A stretch of DNA of 64,000 nucleotides from an uncultured Candidatus Saccharibacteria bacterium (GTDB taxonomy: Bacteria; Patescibacteriota; Dojkabacteria; B142; OLB20), in NCBI GenBank assembly GCA_964461915.1, contig CAYWVD010000001.1, positions 90,211 through 154,210 on the forward strand, given 5' to 3'. The position numbers were made by a program, and so were the translations under genes. The notes beneath the pieces were generated by a model. It searched no databases and had not been told where the DNA came from. It saw only the letters and a list, made by a program, of their open reading frames with translations. Below are positions 14,990-47,234 of the stretch, one piece after another (position 1 is the stretch's first letter; each line of letters starts with the position of its first letter).

Positions 14990-15547
14990 TTAAATTGGCT
15001 TATCTTTTAATTTTAATAAATATCCTATAAAGGTCGAAACTATATGGAGCAAAAAGTAAAAGATGAAAATATAAATAATAAATAATAAATTGCTAGAAAG
15101 ATAAGGTAATAAAAAAATACAACCGCCGATAATGTAGTCTATTTGATCGAATGGGAACCAAGGTTCGCCGGGTTTAATATTTGTCCTTCGTTTGAAAAAA
15201 CTTTTAATCGCATCCCCAAGCAATGCTCCTGATCCTGCAAGGATACCGAAAATAATTGGATTGATATCGTTGAAATTAATTGAAATATGGCTTTGCAACC
15301 AGGGTGATCCTAGATATGCGGATTGTTGAATTATTACAGTTAAAATGGCAATTATTACCCCGGATATTAAACCTCGAAATGTTTTGTGATCGCCAAAGAT
15401 CCTAATACCCTTATAGGATTTGTAGAAATCCAAGGGATAATTGATTTTATTTATGATAGGAATCTTATTTACAAAGACAGGAGTACCATTAGCTAAGCCA
15501 GCAGGTAAAAAGATCCAAATCGCAGTAAAAATATCAATCCAATTCAT
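14990..15547 (-). CDS. CDP-archaeol-synthase-like (CarS/DUF46) CTP transferase membrane protein
   Basis: 185 aa, about 5 TM; 'GDHKTFRG' and 'GDAIKSFFKRR' match the CarS signature G-D-x-x-x-S-F-x-K-R-R. Confidence 0.5.
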   Translation of the reverse strand: MNWIDIFTAIWIFLPAGLANGTPVFVNKIPIINKINYPLDFYKSYKGIRIFGDHKTFRGLISGVIIAILTVIIQQSAYLGSPWLQSHISINFNDINPIIFGILAGSGALLGDAIKSFFKRRTNIKPGEPWFPFDQIDYIIGGCIFLLPYLSSNLLFIIYIFIFYFLLHIVSTFIGYLLKLKDKPI

Positions 15548-21212: not shown

Positions 21213-21548
21213 ATGAAGACAAAAATATTTAAGGCTGCCACTAAGTTCATTGCAATCCCTTTGGCTGGTGCTTTATCAAGTACCTACATAAGAGCAGAAG
21301 GTTCAGTAATTTCATTCCCAAGTCTTGATAATTTGCTTTGGAGCATAGTTGCCACTATTCAATATTACACCCTGCCGGTGATGGCAATAGGGCTCGTTTT
21401 ATTAGGCATAAAATTAGTTTCTAGCGGTGATGATACTGCAACTAAAGATATGGTGAAATCTTGGATGGTAAAGATCTTAATTGGTGGAATTTTAATTTTT
21501 GGTGCAAGTATGATTGCCAACTTAATTAAAACAGCAGTAGGAGGATAA
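21213..21548 (+). CDS. VirB2/TrbC-like T4SS pilin (signal peptide plus two hydrophobic helices)
   Basis: 111 aa; signal-like N-terminus, then 'LPVMAIGLVLLGIKLV' and 'ILIGGILIFGASMIANLI' helices; first gene of the VirB-like cluster. Confidence 0.5.
   Translation: MKTKIFKAATKFIAIPLAGALSSTYIRAEGSVISFPSLDNLLWSIVATIQYYTLPVMAIGLVLLGIKLVSSGDDTATKDMVKSWMVKILIGGILIFGASMIANLIKTAVGG
21540..21545 (+). promoter_or_regulatory. Shine-Dalgarno GGAGGA for the VirB6-like gene (inside the pilin gene 3' end)
   Basis: GGAGGA 3-4 nt before the ATG at 21549. Confidence 0.35.
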
Positions 21549-23420
21549 ATGAAAAAATATTTCAAAAAATTTAATTTGAAAGCTTTAAGTGATTCTTATC
21601 GAGTAGCTCGAAATAACTTTCTTGTGTTAAAAGCTAAGAAGAGGCGTTTAGCAATAATTATCTTATCAACATGGGCTTTCCTAGTAATAACAATTAGTAT
21701 TATTACTATCCTGAATATTTTCAATATTTGGGAAAAAAATACTTATCAACCGGTTGAGCAAAAGGAGCAAGTTGAACAACAAAATTTTTACCCAAATACT
21801 GGTTCGGAAAATGTTTATATCACTCAAATTAAAAACAGTTTGCAATCTACATCAACTCTATTTGATAATTTTATTGCTTTTACTCCTGATCCAACTGGAA
21901 AGTCAAAGTGCTTTAAGCAAGAAAGTTTGATTTGCGAATTAAATTTTTTACCTCAAGCGACCTTAACATTCCCTGCTACAAATGTTTCAATGCCTTCTAC
22001 CCAAAAAATTATTAATACTTTACTAGCCTTAGTTGTCCCTTTTGGCTTCATTTTAATATCAATACAAGGATTTAATTTCCTAGTTGCTGAAAATACAGCA
22101 GAATTAAAAAGTTTTTTATTCCGAGTTTTAGGCGGAATAGTTTTATTAATCATTACTCCATACATCTTGAGTATCTCAATTATGCTCGTTAACCAGTTAT
22201 CAAGCTTTTTATTAGGAAATTCGACTTTAACGGAATTTATTTCAAAATTTGTTGAAAGCCTTGAAAGTGAAACCCCAAACAATCTCTTTCAAGAATTATT
22301 AAAGAACTTTTTTGAACTTGGAAATAATGGTGGGATTAATCCCCTCAGTTATTTATATGCGATACCAGTAATAATCCCATTAAGCCTAATTTTTCTATTG
22401 TTATTATATATAAGTTTTCAATTCATCCTTAGATTTTTAAATTTATATTTTTTATCAGCAGTTTACCCATTTACTATAGTTTTTTCTTTTCATCCAAAAA
22501 CAACACAGATAGTGTCTAACTACTGGAAGCAATGGACTACATTTATAATTCAACAGCCGGTATTTGTTCTAGGATTCGTAATCATTAAAGAGGTTTTATT
22601 CAGCCTTTTCGATAATGGATTATCATTAGAAGTGATGATAATTTTTATAGGCCTCTTACTCTTTTTAGGAACAATTTCAGTTTTTGCATCAAGATTATGG
22701 GGCGATATATATACAGCGGTTGCCAATAATGTTTCTGCTGGTATAGCTGCCAACATGGTGAAAACTTCATTCATCGATAAACCTCTTGAATACGCAGGTA
22801 GATTAGCAAGTATTAAATCGGAGCAAAGTCTTGCTGGAATTTCGAAAAAATATCTTGATACAGAGTCTGCTCCAGCAGAGGAATCTAAGTCTAATACTAA
22901 CAAATCCCCTGAGAAAACTCCTTATAAAAGCCAGCTTGCAAAAGAACTTCAAGGCGGTGGGTTTTCTGTAAATGAATTACCAAATGGCAAGATAAGTACC
23001 AGCGGAAATTTTTATATGGATTCTAAAGATAATTCTGCAATTCAAAAATTATATATAAGCCCCCAAGATGCCCTAAAAGATGGAGTTAAGCCACAAAATA
23101 TTGGGAGCCAAAGAATATCAAATTTAACTCTACAAGACACTTCAAATACCAAAAAAATTGGAGCATATAATGGTGGGATTAAAGACTATGCAGGGGAAAA
23201 TTCAGGTCATGCCAAAAATATTAGCCTAAACTATAAAAGTACAGATAACAAAGTCAAAGAGAATATGACCATGGCTCGTAGCTACAATTTTATTAAAGGT
23301 GTCCAAGCTATCGGAGTTAAAAACGATGTGCAAAATGGTGATAAGTCAATATTGGGAGATAACATTATAAAAATTCATACTTATAAAGAGGTTTTAAAAA
23401 ATAAAAATGCAGGCTATTAG
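21549..23420 (+). CDS. VirB6/TrbL-like polytopic inner-membrane channel protein with a hydrophilic C-terminal tail
   Basis: 623 aa, at least 6 TM segments in the central region, about 220-aa Ser/Asn/Lys-rich C-terminal tail; positioned between pilin and VirB3/VirB4 as in Gram-positive T4SS. Confidence 0.5.
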   Translation: MKKYFKKFNLKALSDSYRVARNNFLVLKAKKRRLAIIILSTWAFLVITISIITILNIFNIWEKNTYQPVEQKEQVEQQNFYPNTGSENVYITQIKNSLQSTSTLFDNFIAFTPDPTGKSKCFKQESLICELNFLPQATLTFPATNVSMPSTQKIINTLLALVVPFGFILISIQGFNFLVAENTAELKSFLFRVLGGIVLLIITPYILSISIMLVNQLSSFLLGNSTLTEFISKFVESLESETPNNLFQELLKNFFELGNNGGINPLSYLYAIPVIIPLSLIFLLLLYISFQFILRFLNLYFLSAVYPFTIVFSFHPKTTQIVSNYWKQWTTFIIQQPVFVLGFVIIKEVLFSLFDNGLSLEVMIIFIGLLLFLGTISVFASRLWGDIYTAVANNVSAGIAANMVKTSFIDKPLEYAGRLASIKSEQSLAGISKKYLDTESAPAEESKSNTNKSPEKTPYKSQLAKELQGGGFSVNELPNGKISTSGNFYMDSKDNSAIQKLYISPQDALKDGVKPQNIGSQRISNLTLQDTSNTKKIGAYNGGIKDYAGENSGHAKNISLNYKSTDNKVKENMTMARSYNFIKGVQAIGVKNDVQNGDKSILGDNIIKIHTYKEVLKNKNAGY

Positions 23421-23688
23421 AATTTATAAAATAAAAATTCGAGAAAATATATTAAGGCAAATAATCTTTACCAATAAAAATATATTTATCGGCCTATTGG
23501 TATTAAATATCGCATTGATTTGGCTGATAGCGGGGACTCTTCCGATGGGCTTCAGGCTTTTGATTTCACTACTTTGTTCTGGTGTATCCCTATTAATATT
23601 CACAATGAAAATTGATGGACAATCTTTAATTAAAATATTTATTAGGATGGCAAAATTTACTTTTATAAATAAGAAATATCGCGGATGA
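23407..23688 (+). CDS. VirB3-like small 2-TM protein
   Basis: 93 aa, two hydrophobic helices, immediately upstream of VirB4. Confidence 0.4.
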   Translation: MQAIRIYKIKIRENILRQIIFTNKNIFIGLLVLNIALIWLIAGTLPMGFRLLISLLCSGVSLLIFTMKIDGQSLIKIFIRMAKFTFINKKYRG

Positions 23689-24200
23689 ATTACCCCTTAA
23701 GTATAAAAAACAATTTAATAATTTATTTCAAATCCATAATTGCAGTTTACGAACTCGATCCAGTCGATCTATTCATACTTCCTGAGGGGGATCAAGAGAT
23801 TTTTATTAAAGATATGGGCAACACACTAAATTCAATTAAGGATTCAGAAATCCAAATCATAATGAGAACGCGCAATGCACTCCCAGAAGATCTTAATACA
23901 CATCTAAATACCTTCAATAAATTCGAAGAAGACATGACAATAAATAAAACCTTAATTCAAAAGTATTCTGAAGATCTTACTGAACTTATTTCCAAGAATA
24001 TCATCCCAATAAAGGAATATTTTTTACTTATCAAACAAAACTGCGAGGTTAGTAAATCCGAGCAATTGACTAAAGGAATTAATTCCCTTGAACGAAAAGT
24101 CTCTCGAATTTTTAATAATATAAATTCTACTGGCATTGGCTTAAAGCAAATAACAGGAAAAGATTTAGATAAATTTTTAATTACCTTCACTAGATCATGA
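23685..24200 (+). CDS. VirB4 N-terminal-domain-like protein, read as the split 5' part of VirB4
   Basis: 171-aa ORF overlapping the ATPase ORF by ATGA; combined length of about 760 aa matches full-length VirB4/TraE/TcpF. Confidence 0.4.
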   Translation: MNYPLSIKNNLIIYFKSIIAVYELDPVDLFILPEGDQEIFIKDMGNTLNSIKDSEIQIIMRTRNALPEDLNTHLNTFNKFEEDMTINKTLIQKYSEDLTELISKNIIPIKEYFLLIKQNCEVSKSEQLTKGINSLERKVSRIFNNINSTGIGLKQITGKDLDKFLITFTRS

Positions 24201-25969
24201 TCACCTCAATCACCAAAGGGTTTCAATGGTATATCAGTGTTTGCGAATCGTTAGGAAAAGATTTTGCAAAGTTATTATTCTTTTTCGAAAAGAAAAAGAG
24301 CCAGGATGAATTTAGCCTAATTAAAAATCATCTTCAAAAAAAAGATGAAACACATTTAAAAAAGTTTTCATTCGATTCAATAATTGAAAAAGATAGATCC
24401 CTTTTGATCGGAGATAAACATCATCGAATTTTTTATTTAGCAGACTTGCCTCCATTTGTCTTCTACTCAACGATATTTAAATTAATCAATTTACCTATTC
24501 CGCTAACTTTTTCTTATCACATTAAAGATACCAACAAGGCATTAATGATTAGGGCTTGTAGAGCAAGGCTTAGCGTTCTAGAAAGTTCTAAAAATTCTGA
24601 TTTGAAGAAAAATAAAAATCCGAGTCCCGAGCTTGTCAAAGAAATTGAAGAATTAACTGTATATATTAACGATTTAGTTTACGATAAAGAAAAATCTTTC
24701 CTATTAAGCCTATATATAGAAATCCGAGCAGATACAAACAATCAACTCATAGAGTTTTCGAAAGTCCTGCAAGATGCCGGCTCAGACTTGGAATTTGTTT
24801 TTAACACTTATTCATTTGCTCAAAAAAAGGCCCTCGATTCAATAATGCCAATTTGTAACGATTCCGTTAAAGAAAGTCACCTTTTGCAAACTTCGGCCAT
24901 GGTCAATCTGCTTCCATTTTTAAGTAGGAATTTAAATGACCCCTCAGGAATATTCTTTGGTGTCGATCATTTTACCAATAGTTTAATTTTGTTAGACATT
25001 TTTAAAGCAAGGAATGCGAATATTAATATTTTCGGAACTTCGGGGTCGGGCAAATCCGTAACAGCAAAGTTATTAATGATGCGTTTTGTTTTGCGAGGTG
25101 TACAAAACTTAATTCTTGACCCCGAAGGTGAATATGTCGGTTTAACAAAAGCTTTAAAGGGGAAAGTATATCAGTTCGATTCAAATAATGGGATAGATCC
25201 ATTTCTGCTTTTACAGGCGTTAGATTGTGAAAAGGCTGATTTAGTTCAAATTATTAAACATTTTTTAAAGTTTTTCATTCAAGACAAGAATTATGATATG
25301 GCTTTACTAGATGAGCTTATAGTAAATTTTATTAAAAGCAAATCTATCCAAACATTTAATTCGTTTTTTATTTTCGTTCAAAAGAAGCTTGGAAAGTCTA
25401 ATGGCATAGTTGTTGACTTAAAACAGCTTATAACAGGGTCCTTAGCAGGCCTTTATACAAATAGTACAAATATTAACTTGTCAAACCAAATAATTTGTTT
25501 TGACTTATCTTTACTGAAAACTGATGAGCAAAAATTACCTTTAATGTACCTTCTTGGTAATGTTATTAATAAACTCTTAGACCTATCGGGAACAAGGAGA
25601 ATGGTTTTTATCGATGAGGCGCATAAATTCATCAAAGATAAAAATAATACTGATTTTTATGTGAACTTGGTTAAAACAGCAAGAAAAAGGAAAGCTGGTG
25701 TTGTAACAATCACACAAAATCCAGAAGATTTTAAAGAATCGGATAATTCAAAAACAATTATTACTCAAGCCGAAACGACAATTTTACTAAAACAAGCTGC
25801 CGCCTCAATTAATTTTATTAATCGCTTTGGGCTTTTTAAATTAAGTGATCGAGAATGCACAGATTTATCAGTATTTGGTGTGGGTGAAGCACTTTTCATT
25901 CGAGAAAAAGAACATATATATATTGATATTTTCCCATTCAAAAGTGAAAGGGAATTGGTTTTTACTTAG
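24197..25969 (+). CDS. VirB4-family T4SS ATPase (C-terminal ATPase portion)
   Basis: Walker A 'NIFGTSGSGKSVTAKLL', Walker B 'MVFIDEAHKF'; 590 aa. Confidence 0.85.
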   Translation: MITSITKGFQWYISVCESLGKDFAKLLFFFEKKKSQDEFSLIKNHLQKKDETHLKKFSFDSIIEKDRSLLIGDKHHRIFYLADLPPFVFYSTIFKLINLPIPLTFSYHIKDTNKALMIRACRARLSVLESSKNSDLKKNKNPSPELVKEIEELTVYINDLVYDKEKSFLLSLYIEIRADTNNQLIEFSKVLQDAGSDLEFVFNTYSFAQKKALDSIMPICNDSVKESHLLQTSAMVNLLPFLSRNLNDPSGIFFGVDHFTNSLILLDIFKARNANINIFGTSGSGKSVTAKLLMMRFVLRGVQNLILDPEGEYVGLTKALKGKVYQFDSNNGIDPFLLLQALDCEKADLVQIIKHFLKFFIQDKNYDMALLDELIVNFIKSKSIQTFNSFFIFVQKKLGKSNGIVVDLKQLITGSLAGLYTNSTNINLSNQIICFDLSLLKTDEQKLPLMYLLGNVINKLLDLSGTRRMVFIDEAHKFIKDKNNTDFYVNLVKTARKRKAGVVTITQNPEDFKESDNSKTIITQAETTILLKQAAASINFINRFGLFKLSDRECTDLSVFGVGEALFIREKEHIYIDIFPFKSERELVFT

Positions 25970-25982
25970 ACAATAAAATTTT

Positions 25983-26696
25983 ATGAAGGAAGAAGAACAA
26001 GCTGAATCAAATATTTTCAAAGTTACTGAGAATATTTTTTCAGGGATACTTGATATTGCATCTCTATTTACCAAAACTGGAAAAGCATTAAAACTTTTAA
26101 ATTCAAAAAACAATATTAATTATATACTTATCTTATTCTTTGTAATCTGTCTATGCGCAATATCCATTTTAATGTTCAGTCTTTCAATTAAATCAATATC
26201 TACAGATAATACTTATGGATACATGATTTATCATGATTTTGTTGATAGTGGGATTCCTCATTTATCTCCATTCGGTGGAGCTAAATATCAAATAACCACG
26301 GCTGATTTTCATGACTTAAATTATTATCAATATTATGGTAGGTGGCATCAAGGTATGGATTTAGTTCCAAATCAAAAATATTATCAAGAAGATTCAGGTT
26401 ATCTTGATTACAAAGATGTTTTAATTTATGCAACTTGTTCTGGAAATGCCAAGTCCCTTGTGGATTCGGCTGGTGCGAACTATATCTACCTTATTTGCGA
26501 TGGAGGGCTATATGCCTTGTTTTTTGTGCATAATAAATACAATTTAATTGAAAAAAACCATCAAGCTAAAGTAATTGCAGGACAGCCCATAGCAGTTATG
26601 GGTAATACTGGGAATTCTTTTGGTGCGCATGTCCATTATGCAATTAAAGATTTAAAAACTAATTCTTTTCTTGATCCAAAACTTTTTATGAATTAG
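25983..26696 (+). CDS. Membrane-anchored M23-family peptidoglycan endopeptidase (VirB1-like wall-opening function)
   Basis: N-terminal TM; 'HQGMD' (HxxxD) and 'GAHVHYAI' (HxH) zinc motifs. Confidence 0.8.
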   Translation: MKEEEQAESNIFKVTENIFSGILDIASLFTKTGKALKLLNSKNNINYILILFFVICLCAISILMFSLSIKSISTDNTYGYMIYHDFVDSGIPHLSPFGGAKYQITTADFHDLNYYQYYGRWHQGMDLVPNQKYYQEDSGYLDYKDVLIYATCSGNAKSLVDSAGANYIYLICDGGLYALFFVHNKYNLIEKNHQAKVIAGQPIAVMGNTGNSFGAHVHYAIKDLKTNSFLDPKLFMN

Positions 26697-28853: not shown

Positions 28854-28895
28854 TTGGTGGATTAAAAAATGTTGGAATGCGGAAATTATAAAAAA

Positions 28896-28970
28896 TCGGA
28901 GCGGAGAGACTTGAACTCTCGACCTCGCGGTCCCAAACCGCGCGTTCTAAGCCAACTGAACTACGCTCCG
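28896..28970 (-). tRNA. tRNA-Pro (anticodon TGG), no encoded CCA
   Basis: Hand-folded: CGGAGCG acceptor, anticodon stem-loop CGCGG-TTTGGGA-CCGCG, T-arm GAGAGTTCAAGTCTCTC. Confidence 0.85.
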
Positions 28971-28990
28971 AAGTGTTTTAGAACACATGT

Positions 28991-29017: not shown

Positions 29018-30361
29018 CTATTCTGAAATTTCTTCTCGATCATCAATAACTTTTTCCTCGAAATTTTTTGGAAGTTTTTGGATCTTTTTGTTTATTGTTT
29101 TTATTGAATCTTTACCAGTTAGGCTAATCGATTTAAAGAAAGCCTTGATCGTCCTAATAATCTTTTTGAATTTAATTGTGATAAACAAGAATACATTCAA
29201 AATCTTACTCACGAGTTTGAGAACAGATGTAACTATTTGTTCTTTGAATAAGATTATGTTGTTGTAAATTAATATCGAGCCCATTCTTACTCTAACTTTC
29301 AGTTGATAGAACATATATGTTAATGTTTTATCAAAATGAGATAGGCCAGCCCAAATATTATCTAAAAATCCTAAGAATCCTTCGTTAGTGGTAGACAAAC
29401 CCGATGAAAGTTTTTCTCCAGCACCTTCCCAGTATACTTGTCCGATCTTTATATAGAGGCCGGATTTATATAAGGCTACACCAAAGAATACAAATGCAAA
29501 TCCTAATATAATAACATCCACTTCGTCACTTATTAATGCAGTAGCTGGAATTGTCGATGTAGTAGGAGTAGTGCTTGTCACAACAACTGATCTTGTAGCT
29601 GTAGGAGTCATTGTCCTAGTTGCTGTAACGGTTGGGGTATTAGTATTTGTAGGAGTAGCAGTTACTCTGCCTGTAGAAGGAGAAACTGTTATTGTAAATG
29701 TTGGACTTACAGTTGGACTTGCTGAAGGGCTAGCCGATGGAGTCCCTATTGTGGCACCCGGTGTATTGGTGGGCGTTGCAGTAGGTGTATCTGTAGCAGC
29801 TAAGGGGACACAAATACTGCAAGAAAAAGGATATTCATTAACAGAACAAGTTGCAAAATAGCTCACAAGCCGCTCGTTACCAATACATGCGACAGCTTTG
29901 AAATTAGTAATAACTCCGGTTGCCATATCCCTATATTCTTGAGGAATATATGCTGAACAATCGCATTTAAAGTCTGAGCCATCTACCCATTCAATACCTG
30001 TATCTTTATTAGCTGTATAGTTACATCTTGCCATTTTCCCAATATCTTTCGTCCCAAATTTGATTAATTCAGTATTAAACTTACAAGAATTTGTATTTTC
30101 TTTATTTGAACAAGAATCACCTGAACTTTGAGGCGCTGAACAACAATTTGATAAAGATGGAGTCGAAGATGATGTTTCGCAAGCGCAATATCCTACTGCA
30201 TTTTCAAAACAACCTGGGGGGACTAGCGCACTTGAATCTTCAGGAGCAGTTGATGGGGTCTGACTAAGTTTTATCCCTATGAATATTGCTCCTCCAGTAA
30301 TTAAAAGAGTCAATACTACAAACATAACTAAAGCAACTTTTTTATATTTAGGGTAGTTCAT
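29018..30361 (-). CDS. Type-I surface protein, paralog A: N-terminal signal/anchor, Cys-rich ectodomain, Thr/Pro linker, 'IPATALISDEVD'-TM, and a roughly 150-aa tail
   Basis: Shared N-terminal helix 'GGAIFIGIKL' and C-terminal module 'PxTALISDEVD + TM + YKSGLYIKIGQVYW' with the three upstream paralogs; 22 Cys in the ectodomain. Confidence 0.6.
   Translation of the reverse strand: MNYPKYKKVALVMFVVLTLLITGGAIFIGIKLSQTPSTAPEDSSALVPPGCFENAVGYCACETSSSTPSLSNCCSAPQSSGDSCSNKENTNSCKFNTELIKFGTKDIGKMARCNYTANKDTGIEWVDGSDFKCDCSAYIPQEYRDMATGVITNFKAVACIGNERLVSYFATCSVNEYPFSCSICVPLAATDTPTATPTNTPGATIGTPSASPSASPTVSPTFTITVSPSTGRVTATPTNTNTPTVTATRTMTPTATRSVVVTSTTPTTSTIPATALISDEVDVIILGFAFVFFGVALYKSGLYIKIGQVYWEGAGEKLSSGLSTTNEGFLGFLDNIWAGLSHFDKTLTYMFYQLKVRVRMGSILIYNNIILFKEQIVTSVLKLVSKILNVFLFITIKFKKIIRTIKAFFKSISLTGKDSIKTINKKIQKLPKNFEEKVIDDREEISE
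29577..29800 (-). repeat. Imperfect tandem codon repeats encoding the Thr/Pro/Ser/Ala linker of paralog A
   Basis: Periodic gt(t/a)gg(a/t)g(t/g)... units; the antisense strand gives a spurious VGV ORF. Confidence 0.5.
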
Positions 30362-30363
30362 TT

Positions 30364-31815
30364 TTAATCCTTATTAACGACTTTTTGAGAATTAATTACT
30401 TCTTCTTCAAATGATTTTGCCTTACGGATCTTAATTGATTTTAAAGAGGCAGAAATTTTGAAGATTATTGTTTTACTAATTCTTTTAACAAAGATCAATG
30501 TATTCAATAAACCTAAGATAATTTGATTTTTAATTCCAGACAATTTATTAAATACAAATTTAAAGCTGTAAACAATATTAAGACCGATTTTTTTGAAACT
30601 CATGATTAGTGAAGTCTCAAATTCTTTTATAGAACTGAAAAGTGAATTCGATCCTTCTTTCAAATCCTCGGATACATTTAAAATGCCGGATGAAACATTC
30701 TTACCTCCGTTATTCCAATAAAGTTGGCCTATTGAAATATACAAGCCTGATTTGTAGATAAATCCGCCGGTAATAACTAACAATAAACCGAATACTATTA
30801 AATCAACTTCATTACTGATAAGAGCAGTAGGAGGAAGTATTGTCCCAGTAGGAGTATTTGTTACAGTCCTTGTAATAGTTCCGGTAGGAGTTCTTGTAAG
30901 AGTTCCTGTTGGAGTGTTTGTTGGTGTCCTTGTGGGAGTATTGGTTGGTGTGTTGGTAGGTGAATTTGTAATAGTTAATGTACCAGTAGGTGTATTTGTT
31001 GGAGTGTCAGTCGGTGTTGGGGTTATAGTAGTACCGGCGGGTACACAGGAGCAAGGATTTTCACCTGGTTCTAGTACTTCTCCGGGATCACAAGCAGTCT
31101 CTACCAATTGACACATTCCTTCGGACCCATCAGGATTAAGGTCATAATCAAAATCACATTCATAGTTGGGATTAATATTTTTACATTGGGCATCTTCGGT
31201 ACAAATTCCGGAGTTACAAGCAAGTGGTTCGGGTTCTTCTTTACAAATATCAAGGTTGCCAGTGTAGCCGGATAAGAAACATTCTGGAGCTACATCACCA
31301 TCAAATTCAACATCAATTTGTTGAAAATTACACCAGTCTCTTTGTAAACAAATTTGATAAACTGATTCTCCGGTATAAAATTCAGGATTAGCATCTCCAC
31401 TTGGATTTACCCATCTTGGAGTTATGTTTTGGATATGTGGGGCTGGATTATTTTTCCAACTTGATCGATCTGAACAATTCTGAGGAGTACCGCCGGGGCA
31501 GCTACATCCTTGACCATTAACGCTCCAATCGCCATCACAAAAGTGACTAGCAAACTGACTCGATGATCCATTTAAAAGATATCTATAATTACTTTTTACT
31601 TGAAGACAAACTGTCTCATCACGAAATACTAATTCACACTGTTTTGGGTCAGAGGGGCCGTATTGATAAATAATACCGTTATAAGTAGCAGCAGATACAT
31701 CGTCAGGTGTTACATCAGGTTGCTGTCCTAACTTTATACCAATATATACTGCTCCGCCTCCTATGATTATTGTAGCTAATATTAGGGCAAGTGCTATAAA
31801 TCTTTTTCTATTCAT
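30364..31815 (-). CDS. Type-I surface protein, paralog B (483 aa): large Cys-rich ectodomain, (TPTNTPT)n linker, 'LPPTALISNEVD'-TM, tail
   Basis: Same architecture and C-terminal module 'YKSGLYISIGQLYW'; about 30 Cys; 2-nt gap to paralog A. Confidence 0.6.
   Translation of the reverse strand: MNRKRFIALALILATIIIGGGAVYIGIKLGQQPDVTPDDVSAATYNGIIYQYGPSDPKQCELVFRDETVCLQVKSNYRYLLNGSSSQFASHFCDGDWSVNGQGCSCPGGTPQNCSDRSSWKNNPAPHIQNITPRWVNPSGDANPEFYTGESVYQICLQRDWCNFQQIDVEFDGDVAPECFLSGYTGNLDICKEEPEPLACNSGICTEDAQCKNINPNYECDFDYDLNPDGSEGMCQLVETACDPGEVLEPGENPCSCVPAGTTITPTPTDTPTNTPTGTLTITNSPTNTPTNTPTRTPTNTPTGTLTRTPTGTITRTVTNTPTGTILPPTALISNEVDLIVFGLLLVITGGFIYKSGLYISIGQLYWNNGGKNVSSGILNVSEDLKEGSNSLFSSIKEFETSLIMSFKKIGLNIVYSFKFVFNKLSGIKNQIILGLLNTLIFVKRISKTIIFKISASLKSIKIRKAKSFEEEVINSQKVVNKD
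30841..31035 (-). repeat. Tandem imperfect 18/21-nt repeats encoding TPTNTPT/TRTPT units
   Basis: Visible periodicity (ggagt(a/g)tt(t/g)gt(t/a)gg...). Confidence 0.55.
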
Positions 31816-31885
31816 TATTATTTCGTAAAAAGTTTTTTAAATATTAATATATTTATAATCAGTATAAGTAATTTCTTCTAAGAAA

Positions 31886-32722
31886 TTAATCGATTTTTGA
31901 CATTTTCTTATCAAATTTGCTTCTATCTTTGTCATACTTCCCTTTAAAGAATCCATCTTTTAAAACAGCCGAGTAAAAACCATTCCTTCCTAAATTGAAT
32001 AAAAATTCGCCTAATTTAATGGTATATCCCGATTTAAAGATTCCGAAACCTAATAATAATAGAGCTCCACCAATTAAGATTCTATCTACCTCATCCGAAA
32101 CTAATGCAGTTGGTGGTAAAGGACTTGAAGTCACTGTTGATGGTGGAACTGAAGTGCTAATAGGTGGCTTTGTAGTTTTTGGAGGAACAGTAGTTGTTGG
32201 AGGGACAGTAGTTGTTGGAGGGACAGTTGTTGTTGGAGGAACTGTAGTCACTGGTGGTTTAGAACATTTACATGTAAAAAGCTGACCGCAATTATCACAG
32301 GTTTGAGTTATAGTGTTTGTCCCGCCTTCGTTTCCGATTCCATCCAGGCAATCCTCTTCGCACTGAGCTTCATCACAACCGCAGGTACCCCAAGTAACTC
32401 CATCATCAGCTAAATAACAACGAGGATCATTATTTGTTTGAGAGGTTCTCCCAAAAGCGCAATAATAGCCACCTTTTGAAGAGTTATACCAGCATCCTGT
32501 CATGTGCTCATTTGGTGGATTTCCAATTTTATTACAGGTTTTTCCGCTACCTCCACGGCCTGTACAGGTCTCGTTTGACCAGATAATGTCAGAGGGAGTT
32601 GCAGCAGAGGCATTTTCGGGGCTGGTATCAACTGTAGCTAACTTTGCGCCAATATATATAGCAATTCCAGATAAAACTATCATAAAGCCGACTAGTATGT
32701 ATATGACTACTTTTTTATTCAT
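31886..32722 (-). CDS. Type-I surface protein, paralog C (278 aa): Cys-rich domain, (TTVPP)n linker, 'LPPTALVSDEVD'-TM, short tail
   Basis: Shares N-terminal 'GIAIYIGAKL' and C-terminal 'FKSGYTIKLGEFLFNLG' with its paralogs. Confidence 0.6.
   Translation of the reverse strand: MNKKVVIYILVGFMIVLSGIAIYIGAKLATVDTSPENASAATPSDIIWSNETCTGRGGSGKTCNKIGNPPNEHMTGCWYNSSKGGYYCAFGRTSQTNNDPRCYLADDGVTWGTCGCDEAQCEEDCLDGIGNEGGTNTITQTCDNCGQLFTCKCSKPPVTTVPPTTTVPPTTTVPPTTTVPPKTTKPPISTSVPPSTVTSSPLPPTALVSDEVDRILIGGALLLLGFGIFKSGYTIKLGEFLFNLGRNGFYSAVLKDGFFKGKYDKDRSKFDKKMSKID
32164..32252 (-). repeat. Four to five near-perfect 18-bp tandem repeats (ggagg(g/a)ac(a/t)gt(a/t)gt(t/c)(g/a)(t/c)t) encoding (P)TTVPPT repeats
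   Basis: Directly visible tandem units at 32181-32252. Confidence 0.7.
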
Positions 32723-33662
32723 CTTTATCTTTAATAATATTATTTTCGAATTTTAAGTTTTTATTTCCTTTAAACTTGGAAAGAATGTTAATGTATAAAT
32801 TTTCTAGACCTAAATTCCATAGTAGTTGTCCGATCTTTTCATCATAGTTTTTCTTAATAAAAATAATTCCTATGAAAATCAAAACTGATCCACCAACTAT
32901 AAAGACAATTTGATTACCATCTAAGTCGGTGCATGGAATTATCTCGATTTTCATGGTGTGTGTTATTGTCTCTAGAGTAGATGTGTTTTGATGAGCTGAT
33001 ATTGTTGAAATATATGATTTTCCATTTTCGCTTGTTGGGACTATTGCTTCGTATGTTAATTCAACTTTCCCATTATTTGCCTTTATTGATAAATCTGTCC
33101 ATTCAATGTCTTTACCTGATAATTTACCATTATTAGAAATCTTATTATTTGTAAGATATTTAACATCAAATTCATTTGCCAGTTTTTCAATTAATTTAAT
33201 ATTGGTTAAATCTGATTGGCCTTTATTAATTAAAGTTATCACAATATTGATCTTGGTGCCATTTGCAGAACATGCAAAACTTGCTTCTTTAGCAATTGAT
33301 AAACTTGATTTAATCGTACAAAGATCGTTATTGCAAAGATTATTAAGCGTTAGAGGTGAAGTAGTTTTGTTTATACAAACATCTAATACGCATCGCTTAC
33401 TCGCATTCACTGAAATACAGGTTGAACCGGCTTGGCAGGAACTATCAGTGCAAGGAGATCCGCATGCAACAGCAGGCTTTAATGTCGGAGTTGGTGTTGG
33501 GGTCCTTGTTATTGATTGGCTGGGAGAAATGAAGATTGTTGGAGTAGGGGTAACTGCCGGTGTTTTCTTTTTTGATAAATTATACCCAAGATAAAGGGTA
33601 ATACCACCCAGAATAATAGTAATGATAAATAGTATTATTACTGTTACCTTCTTAGAGTTCAT
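32715..33662 (-). CDS. Type-I surface protein, paralog D (315 aa): N-terminal Thr/Pro linker, Cys-rich region, beta-rich repeat-like domain, 'IPCTDLDGNQ'-TM, tail 'KIGQLLWNLG'
   Basis: Divergent member; conserved N-terminal helix 'GGITLYLGYNL' and C-terminal 'KIGQLLWNLG'; overlaps paralog C by 8 nt. Confidence 0.5.
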   Translation of the reverse strand: MNSKKVTVIILFIITIILGGITLYLGYNLSKKKTPAVTPTPTIFISPSQSITRTPTPTPTLKPAVACGSPCTDSSCQAGSTCISVNASKRCVLDVCINKTTSPLTLNNLCNNDLCTIKSSLSIAKEASFACSANGTKINIVITLINKGQSDLTNIKLIEKLANEFDVKYLTNNKISNNGKLSGKDIEWTDLSIKANNGKVELTYEAIVPTSENGKSYISTISAHQNTSTLETITHTMKIEIIPCTDLDGNQIVFIVGGSVLIFIGIIFIKKNYDEKIGQLLWNLGLENLYINILSKFKGNKNLKFENNIIKDKDE

Positions 33663-33682
33663 TAAACAAACTTGCCAATTAA

Positions 33683-35149
33683 TTAAGCATTAATAAAAAT
33701 ATTAATATAATTTAAAGAACATAACAAATATATTGAAAATAAAATTATTAAAGCTATTGAAATCCTTTTCATTACTCTTAAGAAGTATTCTTTTTCCTCA
33801 GACAGGGTAAGGAATTGGGTTGCTTGAGTAGAAAAATTGCATTCTTTTCCATCCTTAGTAAATACTTTTTCAATGATTAGTATTAAAGAAGCGGAAGCGG
33901 ATAAGGCTATCAGAGGGAAAATTGAAGAGGACGATGAAAGAATATAAAACAAGAAAATATTGATGATTAATATTGTTAAAGTTTTAAACAGAATCCTGGC
34001 TTGTACATTCATAATTCTTTTTAAAATTTGAAGAGAATGTTTGGCAAAAAAGAATCCGATTAGTCCAAGGGCAAGAAATGGCACAAGTCCGTATGCATTT
34101 ATAAATTGAAAAAGCAATGGCACTGGAACAGTATTTGTTAAACCTCTTCCAAGGAATATACTAACACCATGTAATTCTGAAAGACTAGCAAATCCGTTAT
34201 AAATAAAATAGTAATCGTTTACATTAGGGATTTTTATAATCGAATAAATCCCTACAGCTATAAGAATTAAAGTAATGATCAAAATTGAAATGTTCAGATT
34301 CTTTGAGATTGATTCATAAATGTTTTTCTGTTTTTTATCTATATTTTTAAACATTTTAGCTAAAGAATCTCTCTTCGAAATTATTAATGTTAAAAAAATT
34401 ATAAATAAAGTGATTATTGATACTAATATATTAATCGGGTTATAGAAGTATAAAAGACAGAATAAGCTTATTAAAAGATTTATTCCATTTAAAATATCAA
34501 CCTTAGGCTTTGATTTACCTGAAAAATTGACATAAAAAGACCAAATCAATTGAGCCGGAAATAAAATTGTTAAGAATTCTATTGCTGAATTTGAGATTTG
34601 AAGGTTGAATAGAATAATTAAAATGAATGATATCAGGGGCGAAACTTTGAACGCATTGATCATCCGGCGTATTGAAAGCTTTGATTGATTGTTAATATAG
34701 AAAAAATAATAGATCAAAGAAATTGATATAATTGATACGCCGGAAATGGCGTTTAAAGAAGGCCCGCCCCAAATATTTGTATTTGTTCTAACAATGGCAG
34801 TGTTATAAAAAAATGATAAGGCAATTAATGTTGTGAAAATTAATATCGGAATATCAAGTGGAATACCCAAAAAGTGCGGGCCTTTAACAGTTAAAACCCT
34901 CAAGATTTGTATAACAAAAAAGATAATTGCTAGACCATAGATCAGGATATTTAATACAGATAGATTATTTTGGTCTGTAAGGCTAGGTAGTAAAAAAAAT
35001 AATAATGCAATGGCTATTGAAAAGTTTCGCCCCACAAAATCCAATAAATTTATCGCTTTTTTTGCTGGCTCTTTAAATGAATTCTTGTCTGGGATAGTTA
35101 AGTTTAATTTGTATTTAGGGGTAATACTTATGCTAATTTTCCTAGCCAT
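33683..35149 (-). CDS. Polytopic membrane protein (at least 10 TM), possibly Wzy_C/O-antigen-ligase-like; first gene of the surface-protein operon
   Basis: 488 aa, almost entirely hydrophobic helices with one larger loop containing 'SELHGVSIFLGRGLTN'. The family assignment is a guess from topology and this loop. Confidence 0.35.
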   Translation of the reverse strand: MARKISISITPKYKLNLTIPDKNSFKEPAKKAINLLDFVGRNFSIAIALLFFLLPSLTDQNNLSVLNILIYGLAIIFFVIQILRVLTVKGPHFLGIPLDIPILIFTTLIALSFFYNTAIVRTNTNIWGGPSLNAISGVSIISISLIYYFFYINNQSKLSIRRMINAFKVSPLISFILIILFNLQISNSAIEFLTILFPAQLIWSFYVNFSGKSKPKVDILNGINLLISLFCLLYFYNPINILVSIITLFIIFLTLIISKRDSLAKMFKNIDKKQKNIYESISKNLNISILIITLILIAVGIYSIIKIPNVNDYYFIYNGFASLSELHGVSIFLGRGLTNTVPVPLLFQFINAYGLVPFLALGLIGFFFAKHSLQILKRIMNVQARILFKTLTILIINIFLFYILSSSSSIFPLIALSASASLILIIEKVFTKDGKECNFSTQATQFLTLSEEKEYFLRVMKRISIALIILFSIYLLCSLNYINIFINA

Positions 35150-36087: not shown

Positions 36088-38205
36088 TTATAATTTGCAC
36101 TCGTAGATCACAGAGTCATTTGATCTAAATGATTCGGTGCAATATTGCTTAATGATATCAGTACTAAGGTCTGTATAAGTTTCCCGTTCTTTATCACCAA
36201 CTACGATATATTTAACGAAATATTTTTTTACAATTTTCAAAAAATCGTCTTTTGATTCTGTTGTATAGATATCTTTAAGTTCTTCTTTTCTAGCATTAAT
36301 CTCGTCAATATTGCTTCGCCATTGCCATTCATGCGTGGGCCAGCCAATAATATCGGTTAATCCTGTATTTGCAGAGATTCTGCAATAGTAGGTGTAAGCA
36401 TCGCCAACTGCTTCAGCAATCACTGCTTGTCCAGTAACATTGGTATTAATCCAATTGATCATGGCATAATCTTCTGGGTAAAGCTTTTTAATATATGCAT
36501 TACCATCGATCGTATCATAAAGCTTGAGGGTCTTATCGCCATTTAATAGTTGATCGAAAGAGAAGTTTTTTCCGTCTTCAAATTTGAAAAATGAATAAAA
36601 ATCATTCAAAGCTTCAAAAATGTACGAAAAAGAAGATACAAAAACAATCAATATCACCAACCCATTAATCGCTAATAATAAAAAGCCGTTTTTAAGAGGT
36701 GTGGTGTAGATTTTACGGGAAATGGCATTTATAAAATAAAAGCATGAGATGAAAAATATAGGCCATGCTGCAAAGTAGAATTTAAAGACTGTATTTGTTC
36801 GAAAATAGGGTGGATTAGCTTGATCAAAAAGATCTTTTACATAAAGTATTTCGACTCCAATTATAAGGGCAAATGCAGCAAATCCCAATAGAAAAGCAAA
36901 GATCGAAACATCGTTTTCCTTAATTAAGCTCTTAATGTGGTTTTTAATATTCGAAGCTTTAGACTTCATTAGAACCAAATATGAAATCCCAACTGTAAAA
37001 ATGATCGACAATTGGGCGCCCCACATCAATAACCATTCTTTAAGATCTCGTTCAGTATTAAGTGGAACAAATCCTATACCTCCCACGGCAGGTTTAAAAT
37101 TGTAGAAGTATGGAGCCATAAAGATCAATCCGGGAAGTAAAAGAGTAGTTTCTAAAATCAAAAGCGTGACCAATTTCTTTTTTAATTCACCTTCAAACAT
37201 TAAAAATTGGACAAAGTTTATTAGTAAAAATAGAAAGTTTGCAGTAATAAAATCCCAACTATTGATTCCATACAAAGCAACTAGTGGAACTGATAAAAAG
37301 AGCATCATTTCAACTCTTTCCTTGGAATTAAATTTTGTATGCCATATGTTGTACAAAAAGGCCACCATCATTACTAAAAATGGGAATCCGATGAAATGGC
37401 CATGAAGATCGCCTAAGATAATTGAATATGCAGGGAATTCATTTATAACAAAGGGAATAGTCCTTGTTGCATCCGGGAACCAATATGAAAAATTCTCATG
37501 ATTAATAAATGCTTCTAATAATTTGTAAATGTAATGGAAGTTACCCCCAAAACAAATTAATGTAGCACCCATTAAAGCAATTACGCCTGACCATTTTTTC
37601 AAAGAAGCTTTTGTAAGCTGGAAAATTATTGCAAAACTAGCGATAAAACCATAAGAAATTATTGTATTCAGACCGAAGTTGTATGCAAAAGAAATTGGGA
37701 TCGAGCCGATCTTGGCAACAAAAGTGTATAAATAATGTCCAATATAATAATAATTAATCGACGATCCTGCGAACCACATATCTGATGGGGGCATAAATTC
37801 TGTTCTATTTATTGAATTCATAAAAGCAATATTCATGAATTTTTCAGTACCCTCGACTTGTGCATTTGTAGATTTAATCAGATTCCAAAGGACGAAAATG
37901 AACAAAAAAACGAGTTCTTCTTTAAGCATTGTTTTAGTGAACTTAAACTTGCTTTTCATTAAACGATAACCGGAAAATGCAAGCAGAATAACAAAGACTA
38001 TTAGGGAACTCCATTCTGTAAATGGTATTAATTTTATAGAACTAAATATCCATAAGATGAGGCCTGAAATTAGGAAACCTAGAAATTTAGATATTGCATA
38101 GCCTTTATCGAACCATTTTCTAAAATATTTTTCACCAAATCCCAAACCAATAACATTAAAACACAAAAATACCAGATACCAAATAATCATGTATTTTAGT
38201 TCCAT
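36088..38205 (-). CDS. Large polytopic membrane protein with a YYYxG motif (Chlor_Arch_YYY/DUF2298-like; putative GT-C-fold glycosyltransferase) and a C-terminal soluble domain
   Basis: 705 aa, more than 12 TM helices, 'SSINYYYIGHYLYTF' motif, C-terminal extramembrane domain of about 200 aa. Confidence 0.5.
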   Translation of the reverse strand: MELKYMIIWYLVFLCFNVIGLGFGEKYFRKWFDKGYAISKFLGFLISGLILWIFSSIKLIPFTEWSSLIVFVILLAFSGYRLMKSKFKFTKTMLKEELVFLFIFVLWNLIKSTNAQVEGTEKFMNIAFMNSINRTEFMPPSDMWFAGSSINYYYIGHYLYTFVAKIGSIPISFAYNFGLNTIISYGFIASFAIIFQLTKASLKKWSGVIALMGATLICFGGNFHYIYKLLEAFINHENFSYWFPDATRTIPFVINEFPAYSIILGDLHGHFIGFPFLVMMVAFLYNIWHTKFNSKERVEMMLFLSVPLVALYGINSWDFITANFLFLLINFVQFLMFEGELKKKLVTLLILETTLLLPGLIFMAPYFYNFKPAVGGIGFVPLNTERDLKEWLLMWGAQLSIIFTVGISYLVLMKSKASNIKNHIKSLIKENDVSIFAFLLGFAAFALIIGVEILYVKDLFDQANPPYFRTNTVFKFYFAAWPIFFISCFYFINAISRKIYTTPLKNGFLLLAINGLVILIVFVSSFSYIFEALNDFYSFFKFEDGKNFSFDQLLNGDKTLKLYDTIDGNAYIKKLYPEDYAMINWINTNVTGQAVIAEAVGDAYTYYCRISANTGLTDIIGWPTHEWQWRSNIDEINARKEELKDIYTTESKDDFLKIVKKYFVKYIVVGDKERETYTDLSTDIIKQYCTESFRSNDSVIYECKL

Positions 38206-42753: not shown

Positions 42754-43290
42754 TTAAATATCTAAGTAAAAATGATCATTTTTAAAATTCTCAGAGCTCC
42801 CTGACCTTGGTATCGGTCCATTTAGAGCTTCCCAAATAATATGCTCGCGGCCTTCATAATCATCTTCCCAAAATCTATTTACTGAAATATCAAACTTAAC
42901 ACTAAGTAAGGAATGCATAAAATTAATTTGTTTACTTGACCAGTTAGTGTATGGACCAAAAGGTTTTAATTTATCTTTAGCTTGATCAATTGTATAAAAA
43001 ACCTTAGTTAAACCAGATTGAGATTTCAAAAGGCCCACAACTCCAAGTGCCCATGCGTATACTCCAATCCCCTTGTGTAAATAAGGGGCTTCAAGTTCAA
43101 CATGTGAAATCCAGGCCCCATTTTGAATCAATTTATCATATATTCCACTTGGGTAAACAAATGGCGAAAAACTTCTTGAAACAAAGGCATCAAATCTCCC
43201 AACAAGTTCACCATTTTGGTCAGCTATCGCAATGGTTGACATTGGGTTAACTGCCTTTTCACTTTGTATTGGTATGCCAAATATTCTCAT
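42754..43290 (-). CDS. Small GNAT-like protein, paralog 1 (178 aa)
   Basis: 'ISHVELEAPYLHKGIGVYAWALGVVGLL' resembles GNAT motif A (h-V-x-x-x-x-R/K-G-x-G-x-x-L). Confidence 0.45.
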   Translation of the reverse strand: MRIFGIPIQSEKAVNPMSTIAIADQNGELVGRFDAFVSRSFSPFVYPSGIYDKLIQNGAWISHVELEAPYLHKGIGVYAWALGVVGLLKSQSGLTKVFYTIDQAKDKLKPFGPYTNWSSKQINFMHSLLSVKFDISVNRFWEDDYEGREHIIWEALNGPIPRSGSSENFKNDHFYLDI

Positions 43291-43374
43291 TCGAAATTAT
43301 ATCATAGATATATACCAATTTTAAACCCACTTTTTCTACTTTACAAAAAAAAATCATCGTGTAACAATTTAGCT

Positions 43375-44148
43375 ATGAATCTAATTGCTATAGCAAAAGC
43401 GTTGGGTGTTGATGATATTACATCTCCGACTATTCCTTTTGTCCCTCCAACGGGGACTGTTACTGGTTTACCTACTACCACCGATAGTCCAACAACTGGG
43501 GCGAGTATCTCATTAAAGGCCGATGTAACAAGTATTAAGAAAGATACAGAAACTGATATCAGTGTCATCATATTCAGTAATTCGGAGGAGATAAAATCTT
43601 TAAAATTTACAGTTTCTTATGATCCCAATATTTTTGAAATAGTTGATGGTAGCGATTCTGAAGCTGGTGTTCAAATCCATTATTTAAATTCTTTTTTTGT
43701 AACAAGTAAAAATTCAGTTGATACAGTTAATGGAATAATAACACTTGAAGCAGGTTCCCAAACAGGTACAGCTACTATTAGCAATAGAACAATAGCAAAA
43801 ATCAAAGTTAAGGCCTTAAAAGATGGAATCGGTGAGTTTCGAGTAGTTAAAGATCAATCAAATCTTTTGAAAAGTGATGGGACAAATGTCTTGGTTCAAA
43901 TTCAGGGTGTTACTTTGAGAGTTGGAGAAGGTCAGTTGACTGGGACTCCGAGTGTTAGTACTTCTGTAACTGGTAGCACTACTGGATCTCCCACTGGAAG
44001 TGATATTCAAAAGCCCTTTGATAAGACTCCGGATACTGCTCTATTTGATACACCAGGGAGTATATCGGCTGTGGTTGGGGGTCTTTTCTTGATTGTCACT
44101 GGAATATATTTATACAAGAAGAAGGGTAGCCATGATTTACAGCGCTGA
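43375..44148 (+). CDS. Secreted surface protein with a beta-sandwich (cohesin-like?) domain and a C-terminal 'TPDTALFDTPG'-TM-KKKGSHDLQR sorting-signal-like tail; start taken at the Met of MNLIAIAKALG
   Basis: Thr/Pro/Gly linkers around a roughly 140-aa domain (FTVSYDPNIFEIV...GIITLEAGS); C-terminus = motif + hydrophobic helix + basic tail. The upstream 37 codons of the tracked ORF overlap the convergent gene, so they were excluded. Confidence 0.4.
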   Translation: MNLIAIAKALGVDDITSPTIPFVPPTGTVTGLPTTTDSPTTGASISLKADVTSIKKDTETDISVIIFSNSEEIKSLKFTVSYDPNIFEIVDGSDSEAGVQIHYLNSFFVTSKNSVDTVNGIITLEAGSQTGTATISNRTIAKIKVKALKDGIGEFRVVKDQSNLLKSDGTNVLVQIQGVTLRVGEGQLTGTPSVSTSVTGSTTGSPTGSDIQKPFDKTPDTALFDTPGSISAVVGGLFLIVTGIYLYKKKGSHDLQR

Positions 44149-47207: not shown

Positions 47208-47234
47208 ATAATATTTAATTATTAAAACTCTGCT

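Follow-up and report, generated by a model that had tools for sequence, protein, structure and literature searches.

We analysed a 64,000-nucleotide stretch of contig CAYWVD010000001.1 (forward strand, positions 90,211 to 154,210; hereafter the window, to which all positions refer unless stated otherwise) from an uncultured bacterium assigned to the OLB20 lineage of Dojkabacteria, and in particular a cluster of minus-strand genes at 29018-35149 that encodes a membrane protein and four putative surface proteins. The cluster consists of five tightly packed, co-directional protein open reading frames (ORFs), with coordinates exactly as given in a preliminary description made from the sequence. 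Its lead gene encodes, as described there, a polytopic membrane protein, and the four genes that follow, also recognized at that stage as sharing one architecture, are called here P4, P3, P2 and P1 in their order along the cluster (intergenic distances of +20, -8 (an overlap), +70 and +2 bp from the polytopic gene to P1). What had been called a six-gene operon is made up of five protein genes and a tRNA-Pro gene, which closes the cassette (Table 1). In a consensus scan of the cassette, promoter matches were no better than those in shuffled sequence, and terminator-like matches were either no better than shuffled or fell within the repeats, on their antisense (+) strand. Long ORFs on the plus strand (29571-29861, 30914-31111, 31995-32285 and 33106-33594) are Val/Gly-rich; facing the repeats that code for Thr/Pro, they mirror the linker sequence and are artefacts, not genes.

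A multiple alignment of the four proteins bore out the shared N-terminal helix, which reads TGGAIFIGIKL in P1, GGGAVYIGIKL in P2, SGIAIYIGAKL in P3 and GGITLYLGYNL in P4. At the C-terminus, P1 to P3 carry the box [LI]PxTAL[IV]S[DN]EVD (pentapeptides IPATA, LPPTA and LPPTA, respectively), followed by a transmembrane (TM) helix and by [YF]KSG..I.[IL]G. The box had been ascribed to all four proteins, and this holds for P1 to P3; in P4 it is degenerate (IPCTDLDGNQIV), with a pentapeptide, IPCTD, that fails the LPXTG-like pattern. The remainder of the C-terminal block, that is, one TM helix with its cytoplasmic motif, is common to all four, P4 included.

A word-indexed homologue search with this C-terminal module retrieved only a fragment from the source organism, and an exhaustive hidden Markov model (HMM) search was therefore needed. 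The HMMER profile built from the four modules was run against 1.84 billion cluster-representative proteins, a check that the preliminary description had proposed, and it retrieved 118 representatives at E ≤ 1e-3 and 36 at E ≤ 1e-10. Nearly all of them carry the match at their C-terminus, and the similarity of the four modules is far beyond chance. The consensus of 101 stacked modules consists of a T/P-rich stretch and L-P-x-T-A-L-I-S-D-E-[VA]-D-R ahead of the TM helix, a pattern G(+15), L(+18), G(+22), Y(+26) within it (G..L...G...Y), and [RK]-x-G-x-[YH]-x-x-[IL]-G-x-x-F-W-N-x-G-G-K after it; beyond this motif the tail varies up to a terminal FExK. The box lies about 10 residues ahead of the helix, which is directly followed by K/R, and its Pro is found in 99 of the 101 modules, its Thr in 95 and its Ala in 94, with D(+7) in 87, D(+10) in 88 and, within the helix, G(+22) in 93. 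The N-terminus of the family also follows a pattern of its own: MNKKR precedes a hydrophobic stretch of ~20 residues with T(-6), GG, A(+1), [IV], Y, I, G(+5) and L(+8), beyond which come P(+12), P(+16), [DE][DE], x, x and A(+21). This pattern is absent from the other N-anchored proteins of the window.

As the preliminary description had supposed, the C-terminal module corresponds to no named domain. P1 to P3 and the polytopic protein gave no match in Pfam (E ≤ 0.1) or NCBIfam (E ≤ 1), the module profile retrieved nothing among the PDB sequences at E ≤ 10, and public records carry the label "hypothetical protein". All named sources of the family loci and of the cluster members are Candidatus Dojkabacteria, also known as candidate division WS6, and the remaining family loci of the genome collection are metagenome-assembled genomes (MAGs) with an identical gene order. 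No description of the family was found in the literature on sortases and LPXTG signals in Dojkabacteria or Patescibacteria. The surface-protein family and its cassette are thus genuine, previously undescribed and specific to the Dojkabacteria. Some members lie outside the canonical cassette (L012 450-4240; L008 8405-10216): OLB20 has a solitary member of 603 aa on another contig, and another MAG has three adjacent members with no polytopic gene nearby. The module is therefore not strictly confined to the cassette.

Wherever the polytopic gene was found, the gene order is the same, running from serine hydroxymethyltransferase (SHMT) through an amine oxidase, a DUF2298 protein and FolD (on the opposite strand) to the polytopic gene and two to five family genes directly downstream of it (more than 10 loci: window, L003, L004/5, L006, L007, L009, L010, L011, L016 and L018). 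The polytopic gene and the first family gene are on the same strand and 5-45 bp apart, an adjacency kept even where the polytopic proteins share just 19-21% identity, and this first family gene is of the DUF11 type in all the syntenic loci. In six loci (window, L003, L004, L006, L007 and L009), the last family gene has a tRNA-Pro(UGG) gene directly after it, in the same orientation. Codons for Pro make up 6.0% of the cassette genes against 3.8% of their neighbours, and those for Thr 11.0% against 4.8%; the tRNA gene may be co-transcribed with the cassette, or its position could have to do with supplying the Pro-rich linkers. A metagenome scan returned mostly further copies of the same cassette. 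The unit is best explained as a core envelope cassette of the Dojkabacteria (WS6), composed of the polytopic protein, two to five paralogous surface proteins and tRNA-Pro.

No similarity could be detected among the ectodomains of P1 to P4, which confirms the earlier picture of a constant anchor scaffold that carries differing ectodomains. They contain 14, 18, 13 and 10 Cys, respectively, where 20-30 had been estimated. Residues 121-226 of P4 match DUF11 (PF01345; E 9.4e-6, 26.4 bits against a gathering cut-off of 24.6 bits). Across 106 family members, Pfam detected DUF11 in 11 (E ≤ 0.001), DUF7927 in six and a GBS104-like tip-pilin Ig domain in two, together with Laminin_G and Fn3-like domains. 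An AlphaFold2 model of P2 (13 sequences) comprises a moderately confident beta-rich ectodomain (residues ~41-190, pLDDT 70-88), a disordered linker, and a TM segment and tail that form one long helix of low confidence. A Thr/Pro linker had been described ahead of the anchor in every gene; it is there in P1 to P3, while the Thr/Pro stretch of P4 follows the N-terminal helix instead. Similarly, tandem DNA repeats of 18-21 nt had been said to encode the linkers, and Tandem Repeats Finder (TRF) detected repeats in P3, where a unit of 18 nt occurs 4.3 times, and in P2 (12/24 nt) but none in P1 or P4.

The four genes had been regarded as rapidly diverging and hypervariable, which would make them a quickly diversifying repertoire of adhesins or host-interaction proteins that varies through its ectodomains and the length of its repeats. 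The mutually unrelated ectodomains of the paralogues would suit such a repertoire, and so would the clade-restricted ectodomain type of P1: the P4/DUF11 type is found in 47 representatives, the P2 type in 25 and the P3 type in 11, when that of P1 is limited to its own near-identical variant, with an orthologue in L003, outside the representative set. Three of the four types are nonetheless conserved across the lineage, with orthologues in other genomes, and gene order is conserved between loci. Compared with the syntenic L003, the ectodomains of the window are 49-64% identical, as against 78-85% for FolD, amine oxidase and SHMT, and the polytopic protein is 61% identical. Strain variants are of equal length and differ by 11 of 447 residues in P1 (P0009), 7 of 483 in P2 (P0010) and 16 of 488 in the polytopic protein, that is, 1.4-2.5% in the surface proteins and 3.3% in the polytopic protein, and contig L002 from the Logan collection is 100% identical to the window across P3. 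The comparison of repeat copy number between strains, suggested earlier as a check, revealed no change between the window and the strain variants. The few substitutions do cluster past the putative signal-peptide site (P1 codons 43-56, ~30194-30235, 6 of 11; P2 codons 56-58, 3 of 7), and the predicted mature N-terminus of P1 and P2 may thus present a small variable patch that is exposed. Judged from these sequence comparisons, the paralogous surface proteins are old and stable; their sequences change more quickly than those of housekeeping genes, though not more quickly than that of their polytopic partner. A rapidly diversifying repertoire is largely refuted and, in our view, very improbable; the surface proteins may still have a role in adhesion or host attachment.

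The polytopic protein is predicted to have ~13 TM helices, with its N-terminus inside and its C-terminus outside (hydropathy, positive-inside rule and model helices), and is called the 13-TM protein below. Its AlphaFold2 model (seven sequences) is poor, with a pLDDT of 45. Homologues are few, share 19-97% identity and are always encoded directly upstream of a family gene; the link between the two families is drawn from this strict same-strand adjacency. None of 13 homologues matched Pfam even at E ≤ 10, no NCBIfam model matched, and the alignment profile retrieved nothing among the PDB sequences at E ≤ 10. In an alignment of 12 sequences, the invariant residues are Y71, D99, T106, S112, W127-G-G, S139, Y147-Y148, P198, G334xG336 and Y353-G354, and the proteins end in a conserved LNYINIF-like stretch. 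No Cys, His or Arg is invariant in this alignment. D99, the only invariant acid, is predicted to be on the cytoplasmic side, as are the conserved basic residues K89, K/R370 and K428, and the residues conserved on the outer face are only Gly or aromatic (WGG, GxG, YG, NxF), with an outer loop, 306-354, that conserves only Gly, Tyr and Phe. The lack of an invariant Cys, His or Arg and the cytoplasmic position of the conserved charges argue against outer-face catalysis of the sortase, exosortase, rhomboid, WaaL/Wzy_C or GT-C type. The name "Wzy_C-like" first attached to this protein (PF04932) finds no support, as the 13 homologues gave no match to this family at E ≤ 10 and conserve no His or Arg on the outer face. 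The idea of a GT-C paralogue was also dropped, hhalign giving probabilities of 0.3% against the adjacent DUF2298 protein and 0.1% against the STT3 protein encoded upstream.

The reading that we favour, tentatively, is that the cassette proteins are exported, stalked envelope proteins held by an extended sorting-type anchor, which would dock at the 13-TM protein and probably be processed between the Thr and the Ala of PxTA. The sequence data establish the architecture, the family and its restriction to the lineage, the synteny and the stability of the paralogues; export, glycosylation, docking and, above all, cleavage of the box are what we infer, and the route would be as follows. The precursor would be exported by means of its family-specific N-terminal signal helix, which is followed by a signal-peptidase-like ...P-[DE]-[DE]-x-x-A; the Pro at -5 and the small residues at -3 and -1 before the conserved Ala look like a signal peptidase I site. 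It would then fold into a disulfide-rich, mostly beta ectodomain, either DUF11/Ig-like or of one of three other conserved types, which in most members would be spaced off the membrane by a Thr/Pro stalk that is probably glycosylated. Retention would depend on the C-terminal module as an extended cell-wall-sorting-type signal, with the [LIV]PxT[AG] box, TM helix and K/R of a canonical signal and, in addition, the acidic LISDExDR, the patterned helix G..L...G...Y and the tail G..[IL]G..FWNxGGK...FExK. Finally, TM helix and tail would dock the precursor at the 13-TM protein, leaving the bond between Thr and Ala open to transpeptidation onto a Gram-positive-like wall.

Among the ectodomains, DUF11 (11 members) and the GBS104-like Ig domain (two members) support this sortase-like interpretation, both domains being typical of sortase substrates. 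The window encodes envelope enzymes (Mur ligase and MraY-type enzymes), and an LCP-family protein (LytR_cpsA_psr) is encoded just upstream of it. LPNTA is the experimentally cleaved motif of a class D sortase of Bacillus anthracis (PMC3208642). Bacteria from the Candidate Phyla Radiation (CPR) have a Gram-positive-like envelope, more than half of their genomes encode a sortase, and they carry disulfide machinery of the MdbA/VKOR type (PMC6744442), which would suit Cys-rich exported proteins.

Further support comes from a cohesin-domain protein encoded elsewhere in the window, which ends in a minimal form of the same signal, PxT[AG]-TM-KKK with a tail of 10 aa (Table 1). Its orthologues are syntenic in three genomes (window; L003, 2154-2894; L004, 2788-3528), and that of L004 reads TPRTGIVDD, an A-to-G exchange within the box. 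Its TM pattern resembles that of the family, and the cohesin protein probably uses the same anchoring machinery. This common pattern (G..L/I...G...Y-K-x-G) is the strongest hint of a membrane-embedded signal reader, and it would be expected for such a reader and not for a sortase. The 13-TM protein could then itself be the processing or attachment enzyme, an unrelated analogue of exosortase, archaeosortase or rhombosortase that reads the box and the patterned helix, the more so as paralogues with a common C-terminal signal beside a single polytopic protein form the layout of known sorting systems. We consider this quite improbable, since the 13-TM protein has neither an invariant Cys, His or Arg nor a nucleophile or acid on its outer face (D99 being predicted cytoplasmic), matches no family model, and would have to act on signals with long conserved tails, a trait that sets them apart from every known CTERM signal. 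A wider proposal, which we would call rather unlikely as a whole, is that the 13-TM protein and a bipartite signal (the N-helix together with PxTA-LISDExDR/TM/FWNxGGK) form a previously unknown, Dojkabacteria-specific system of sorting or envelope assembly with the cohesin protein among its targets; it would be mechanistically sortase- or exosortase-like, would be built on an unrelated polytopic protein, and its targets would be the cell surface that meets hosts.

Several findings weigh against a processed, sorting-type anchor. No sortase gene (PF04203, with the catalytic Cys in TLxTC) was detected in the 64-kb window together with ~20 kb at its ends (10 kb each, ~84 kb in total), nor adjoining the family genes in ~20 related loci, metagenome scan included. 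P1 to P4 matched no anchor model of Pfam or NCBIfam (same thresholds as above), short models being insensitive; both libraries include such models (Gram_pos_anchor in Pfam, LPXTG anchor in NCBIfam). Conservation covers the whole box of 12 residues, beyond PxTA, and the P4 of the window's clade has lost the box but retained TM helix and tail. P1 to P3 do have the pentapeptide of a sorting signal, but their proteins do not end in a short tail. Behind the helix, the median tail length is 50 aa; tails range from 13 to 186 aa, all but one of 106 members have 30 aa or more, and in 85 of 106 members the tail ends in a motif of the [FY][EDQ]x[KR] type (FExK-like); such a long conserved tail is superfluous for a mere sorting signal and is a better fit to a permanent membrane anchor. 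Lastly, the housekeeping genes upstream are syntenic too, and it is from synteny only that the role of the 13-TM protein is read.

These findings could mean that the proteins are permanent membrane proteins, of type-I or two-anchor (N-in, C-in) topology, in which the box stays unprocessed, an explanation that we find possible though doubtful. LPxTA-LISDExDR would then dock at the outer face of the 13-TM protein, on which the TM helix or helices would pack, and the tail would tie the surface domains to a cytoplasmic partner, making the cassette a membrane-embedded envelope complex that is not wall-anchored. The even conservation over the box and the small-residue patterns of both helices (T...GG.A.YIG in the N-helix, G..L...G...Y in the C-helix) would agree with such packing, and the Gly and aromatic residues that the 13-TM protein conserves on its outer face resemble a binding surface more than a catalytic site. 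Retention of helix and tail in a P4 without box, the length and conservation of the cytoplasmic tails, and the absence of a sortase from the ~84 kb and the related loci point in the same direction. At the N-terminus, the hydrophobic stretch of 22-24 residues would suffice to anchor the protein stably, and ~13 residues separate it from the putative cleavage site; the Pro at -5 and the small residues at -3 and -1, however, fit cleavage by signal peptidase. A permanent anchor is also less easily reconciled with a box that matches an experimentally established sortase motif and stands in its canonical place, and with the cohesin protein, whose version of the signal has just a 10-aa tail and looks like a disposable sorting signal. 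An extended sorting-type anchor docking at the 13-TM protein is hence the explanation that we retain, with the tentativeness stated above.

The cassette had also been placed beside a locus resembling a type IV secretion system (T4SS). The T4SS-like genes are 3 kb away, and three unrelated genes (M23 peptidase, CTP synthase and pyrimidine-dimer glycosylase) lie between. No T4SS genes were found past the cassette in any syntenic locus that extends beyond its end; as downstream genes differ between loci and none has a T4SS, this neighbourhood is incidental. The DUF2298/Chlor_Arch_YYY gene is in conserved synteny with the cassette, and the window also encodes a phosphomannomutase and a ManC-type nucleotidyltransferase (GDP-mannose route). 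An STT3-family oligosaccharyltransferase gene runs into the start of the window, and GT2 (with GtrA) and GT4 enzymes are encoded just upstream of it, as is the LCP protein; overall, the 10-kb extensions at the two ends hold glycosylation and ribosomal genes. Glycosylation of the Thr/Pro stalk would be plausible given this surrounding toolkit. As a separate observation, a 185-aa protein encoded at 14990-15547 (-) matches the CarS-like CDP-archaeol synthases (PF01864, E 1.3e-25), an archaeal-type lipid enzyme family here present in a bacterium; its gene adjoins the Mur ligase and lies near a CDP-alcohol phosphatidyltransferase.

Table 1 Features of the envelope cassette, its surroundings and related loci (window positions unless a locus is named).
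Feature	Position	Strand	Content or basis
Polytopic membrane protein, 488 aa	33683-35149	-	ORF; ~13 predicted TM helices; cassette lead; orphan family
P4, 315 aa	32715-33662	-	N-helix, Thr/Pro stretch, Cys-rich segment, DUF11, degenerate box IPCTDLDGNQIV, TM helix, conserved tail
P3, 278 aa	31886-32722	-	N-helix, 13-Cys ectodomain, TTVPP-repeat linker, box LPPTALVSDEVDR, TM helix, tail
P2, 483 aa	30364-31815	-	N-helix, 18-Cys beta-rich ectodomain, TxTPTN linker, box LPPTALISNEVD, TM helix, 130-aa helical tail to FEEEVI
P1, 447 aa	29018-30361	-	N-helix, 14-Cys ectodomain, Thr/Pro/Ser linker, box IPATALISDEVD, TM helix, 150-aa tail to FEEKVI
tRNA-Pro (anticodon UGG)	28895-28971	-	ARAGORN and Rfam; 46 bp downstream of P1; closes the cassette
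C-terminal anchor module of P1 (box, TM helix, cytoplasmic tail)	29018-29551	-	Motif position and family consensus
C-terminal anchor module of P2	30364-30837	-	Motif position and family consensus
C-terminal anchor module of P3	31886-32119	-	Motif position and family consensus
C-terminal anchor module of P4 (degenerate box; TM helix and tail kept)	32715-32939	-	Alignment and motif position
P3 linker tandem repeat	32172-32248	-	18 nt x 4.3, encodes (T)TTVPP; TRF score 119
P2 linker imperfect tandem repeats	30865-30954	-	12/24 nt, encode TxTPTN; TRF
Cohesin-domain protein	43264-44148	+	ORF
C-terminal signal of cohesin-domain protein	44026-44148	+	Short signal: TPDTALFD, TM GGLFLIVTGIYLY, KKKGSHDLQR
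TrbC/VirB2-type pilin, 111 aa	21213-21548	+	T4SS-like locus
Unannotated protein, 623 aa	within 21213-25969	+	T4SS-like locus
VirB4/TraG-like ATPase, 590 aa	24197-25969	+	T4SS-like locus
M23 peptidase	25983-26696		Directly beyond the T4SS-like genes
Glycosylation toolkit around the cassette	8-1189	+
Glycosylation toolkit around the cassette	36088-38205; 45096-48311
Glycosylation toolkit around the cassette	L021/L022 1-9954
tRNA-Pro(UGG), related locus	L003 16442-16518
tRNA-Pro(UGG), related locus	L004 17126-17200
tRNA-Pro(UGG), related locus	L006 11744-11819
tRNA-Pro(UGG), related locus	L007 10515-10590
tRNA-Pro(UGG), related locus	L009 11914-11989

The Dojkabacteria belong to the CPR, have tiny genomes and are uncultivated; to our knowledge, almost nothing is known of their envelope. 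The anchor module described here is an undescribed, lineage-wide domain whose HMM can be used to list the surface proteome of the Dojkabacteria, and the analysis defines an orphan 13-TM partner and a conserved cassette that ends in tRNA-Pro. It also removes the tempting but wrong reading of hypervariable adhesins. The cassette offers concrete targets for cryo-electron tomography, proteomics and antibody work on how the surface is built and on possible host attachment. If the box should turn out to be a sortase site with a functional, retained tail, or the 13-TM protein a new sorting factor, the known range of bacterial surface anchoring would grow.

Among known systems, the cassette proteins are close in plan to the LPXTG/LPNTA wall-anchored proteins of Gram-positive bacteria, with which they share a conserved N-terminal signal (often of the YSIRK type there), an [LI]PxT[AG] box followed by a hydrophobic helix and K/R, a Pro/Thr-rich spacer ahead of the box, DUF11/Ig-like ectodomains of the pilin type and the clustering of substrates. 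They differ in that the tail is conserved and 13-186 aa long, where those proteins have 5-10 basic residues, in that conservation extends to LISDExDR after the box and to the TM helix, and in that a 13-TM protein is co-encoded, with no sortase in or near the cluster and no match to an anchor HMM. The archaeosortase/PGF-CTERM, exosortase/PEP-CTERM and rhombosortase/GlyGly-CTERM systems likewise comprise paralogues with a lineage-specific signal of motif, TM helix and basic residues, a Thr-rich linker (O-glycosylated there, as in the Haloferax S-layer glycoprotein with ArtA) and a single polytopic gene beside the targets. However, the 13-TM protein resembles neither EpsH/ArtA nor the rhomboids and lacks the Cys/Arg/His or Ser/His set, and the signal described here has a long conserved cytoplasmic extension. 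With sortase-assembled pilus clusters, the cassette shares two to five genes in tandem, Ig-like and DUF11 domains and C-terminal signals of the LPxT type, and two family members match the GBS104-like tip-pilin Ig domain; here, in contrast, there is no class C sortase gene, no pilin-motif or isopeptide signature was found, though no search aimed at one was made, and the ectodomains of P1 to P3 are Cys-rich and unrelated to known pilins. The cassette proteins are therefore best classed with the envelope proteins anchored by a sorting signal, with a partner that is possibly novel.

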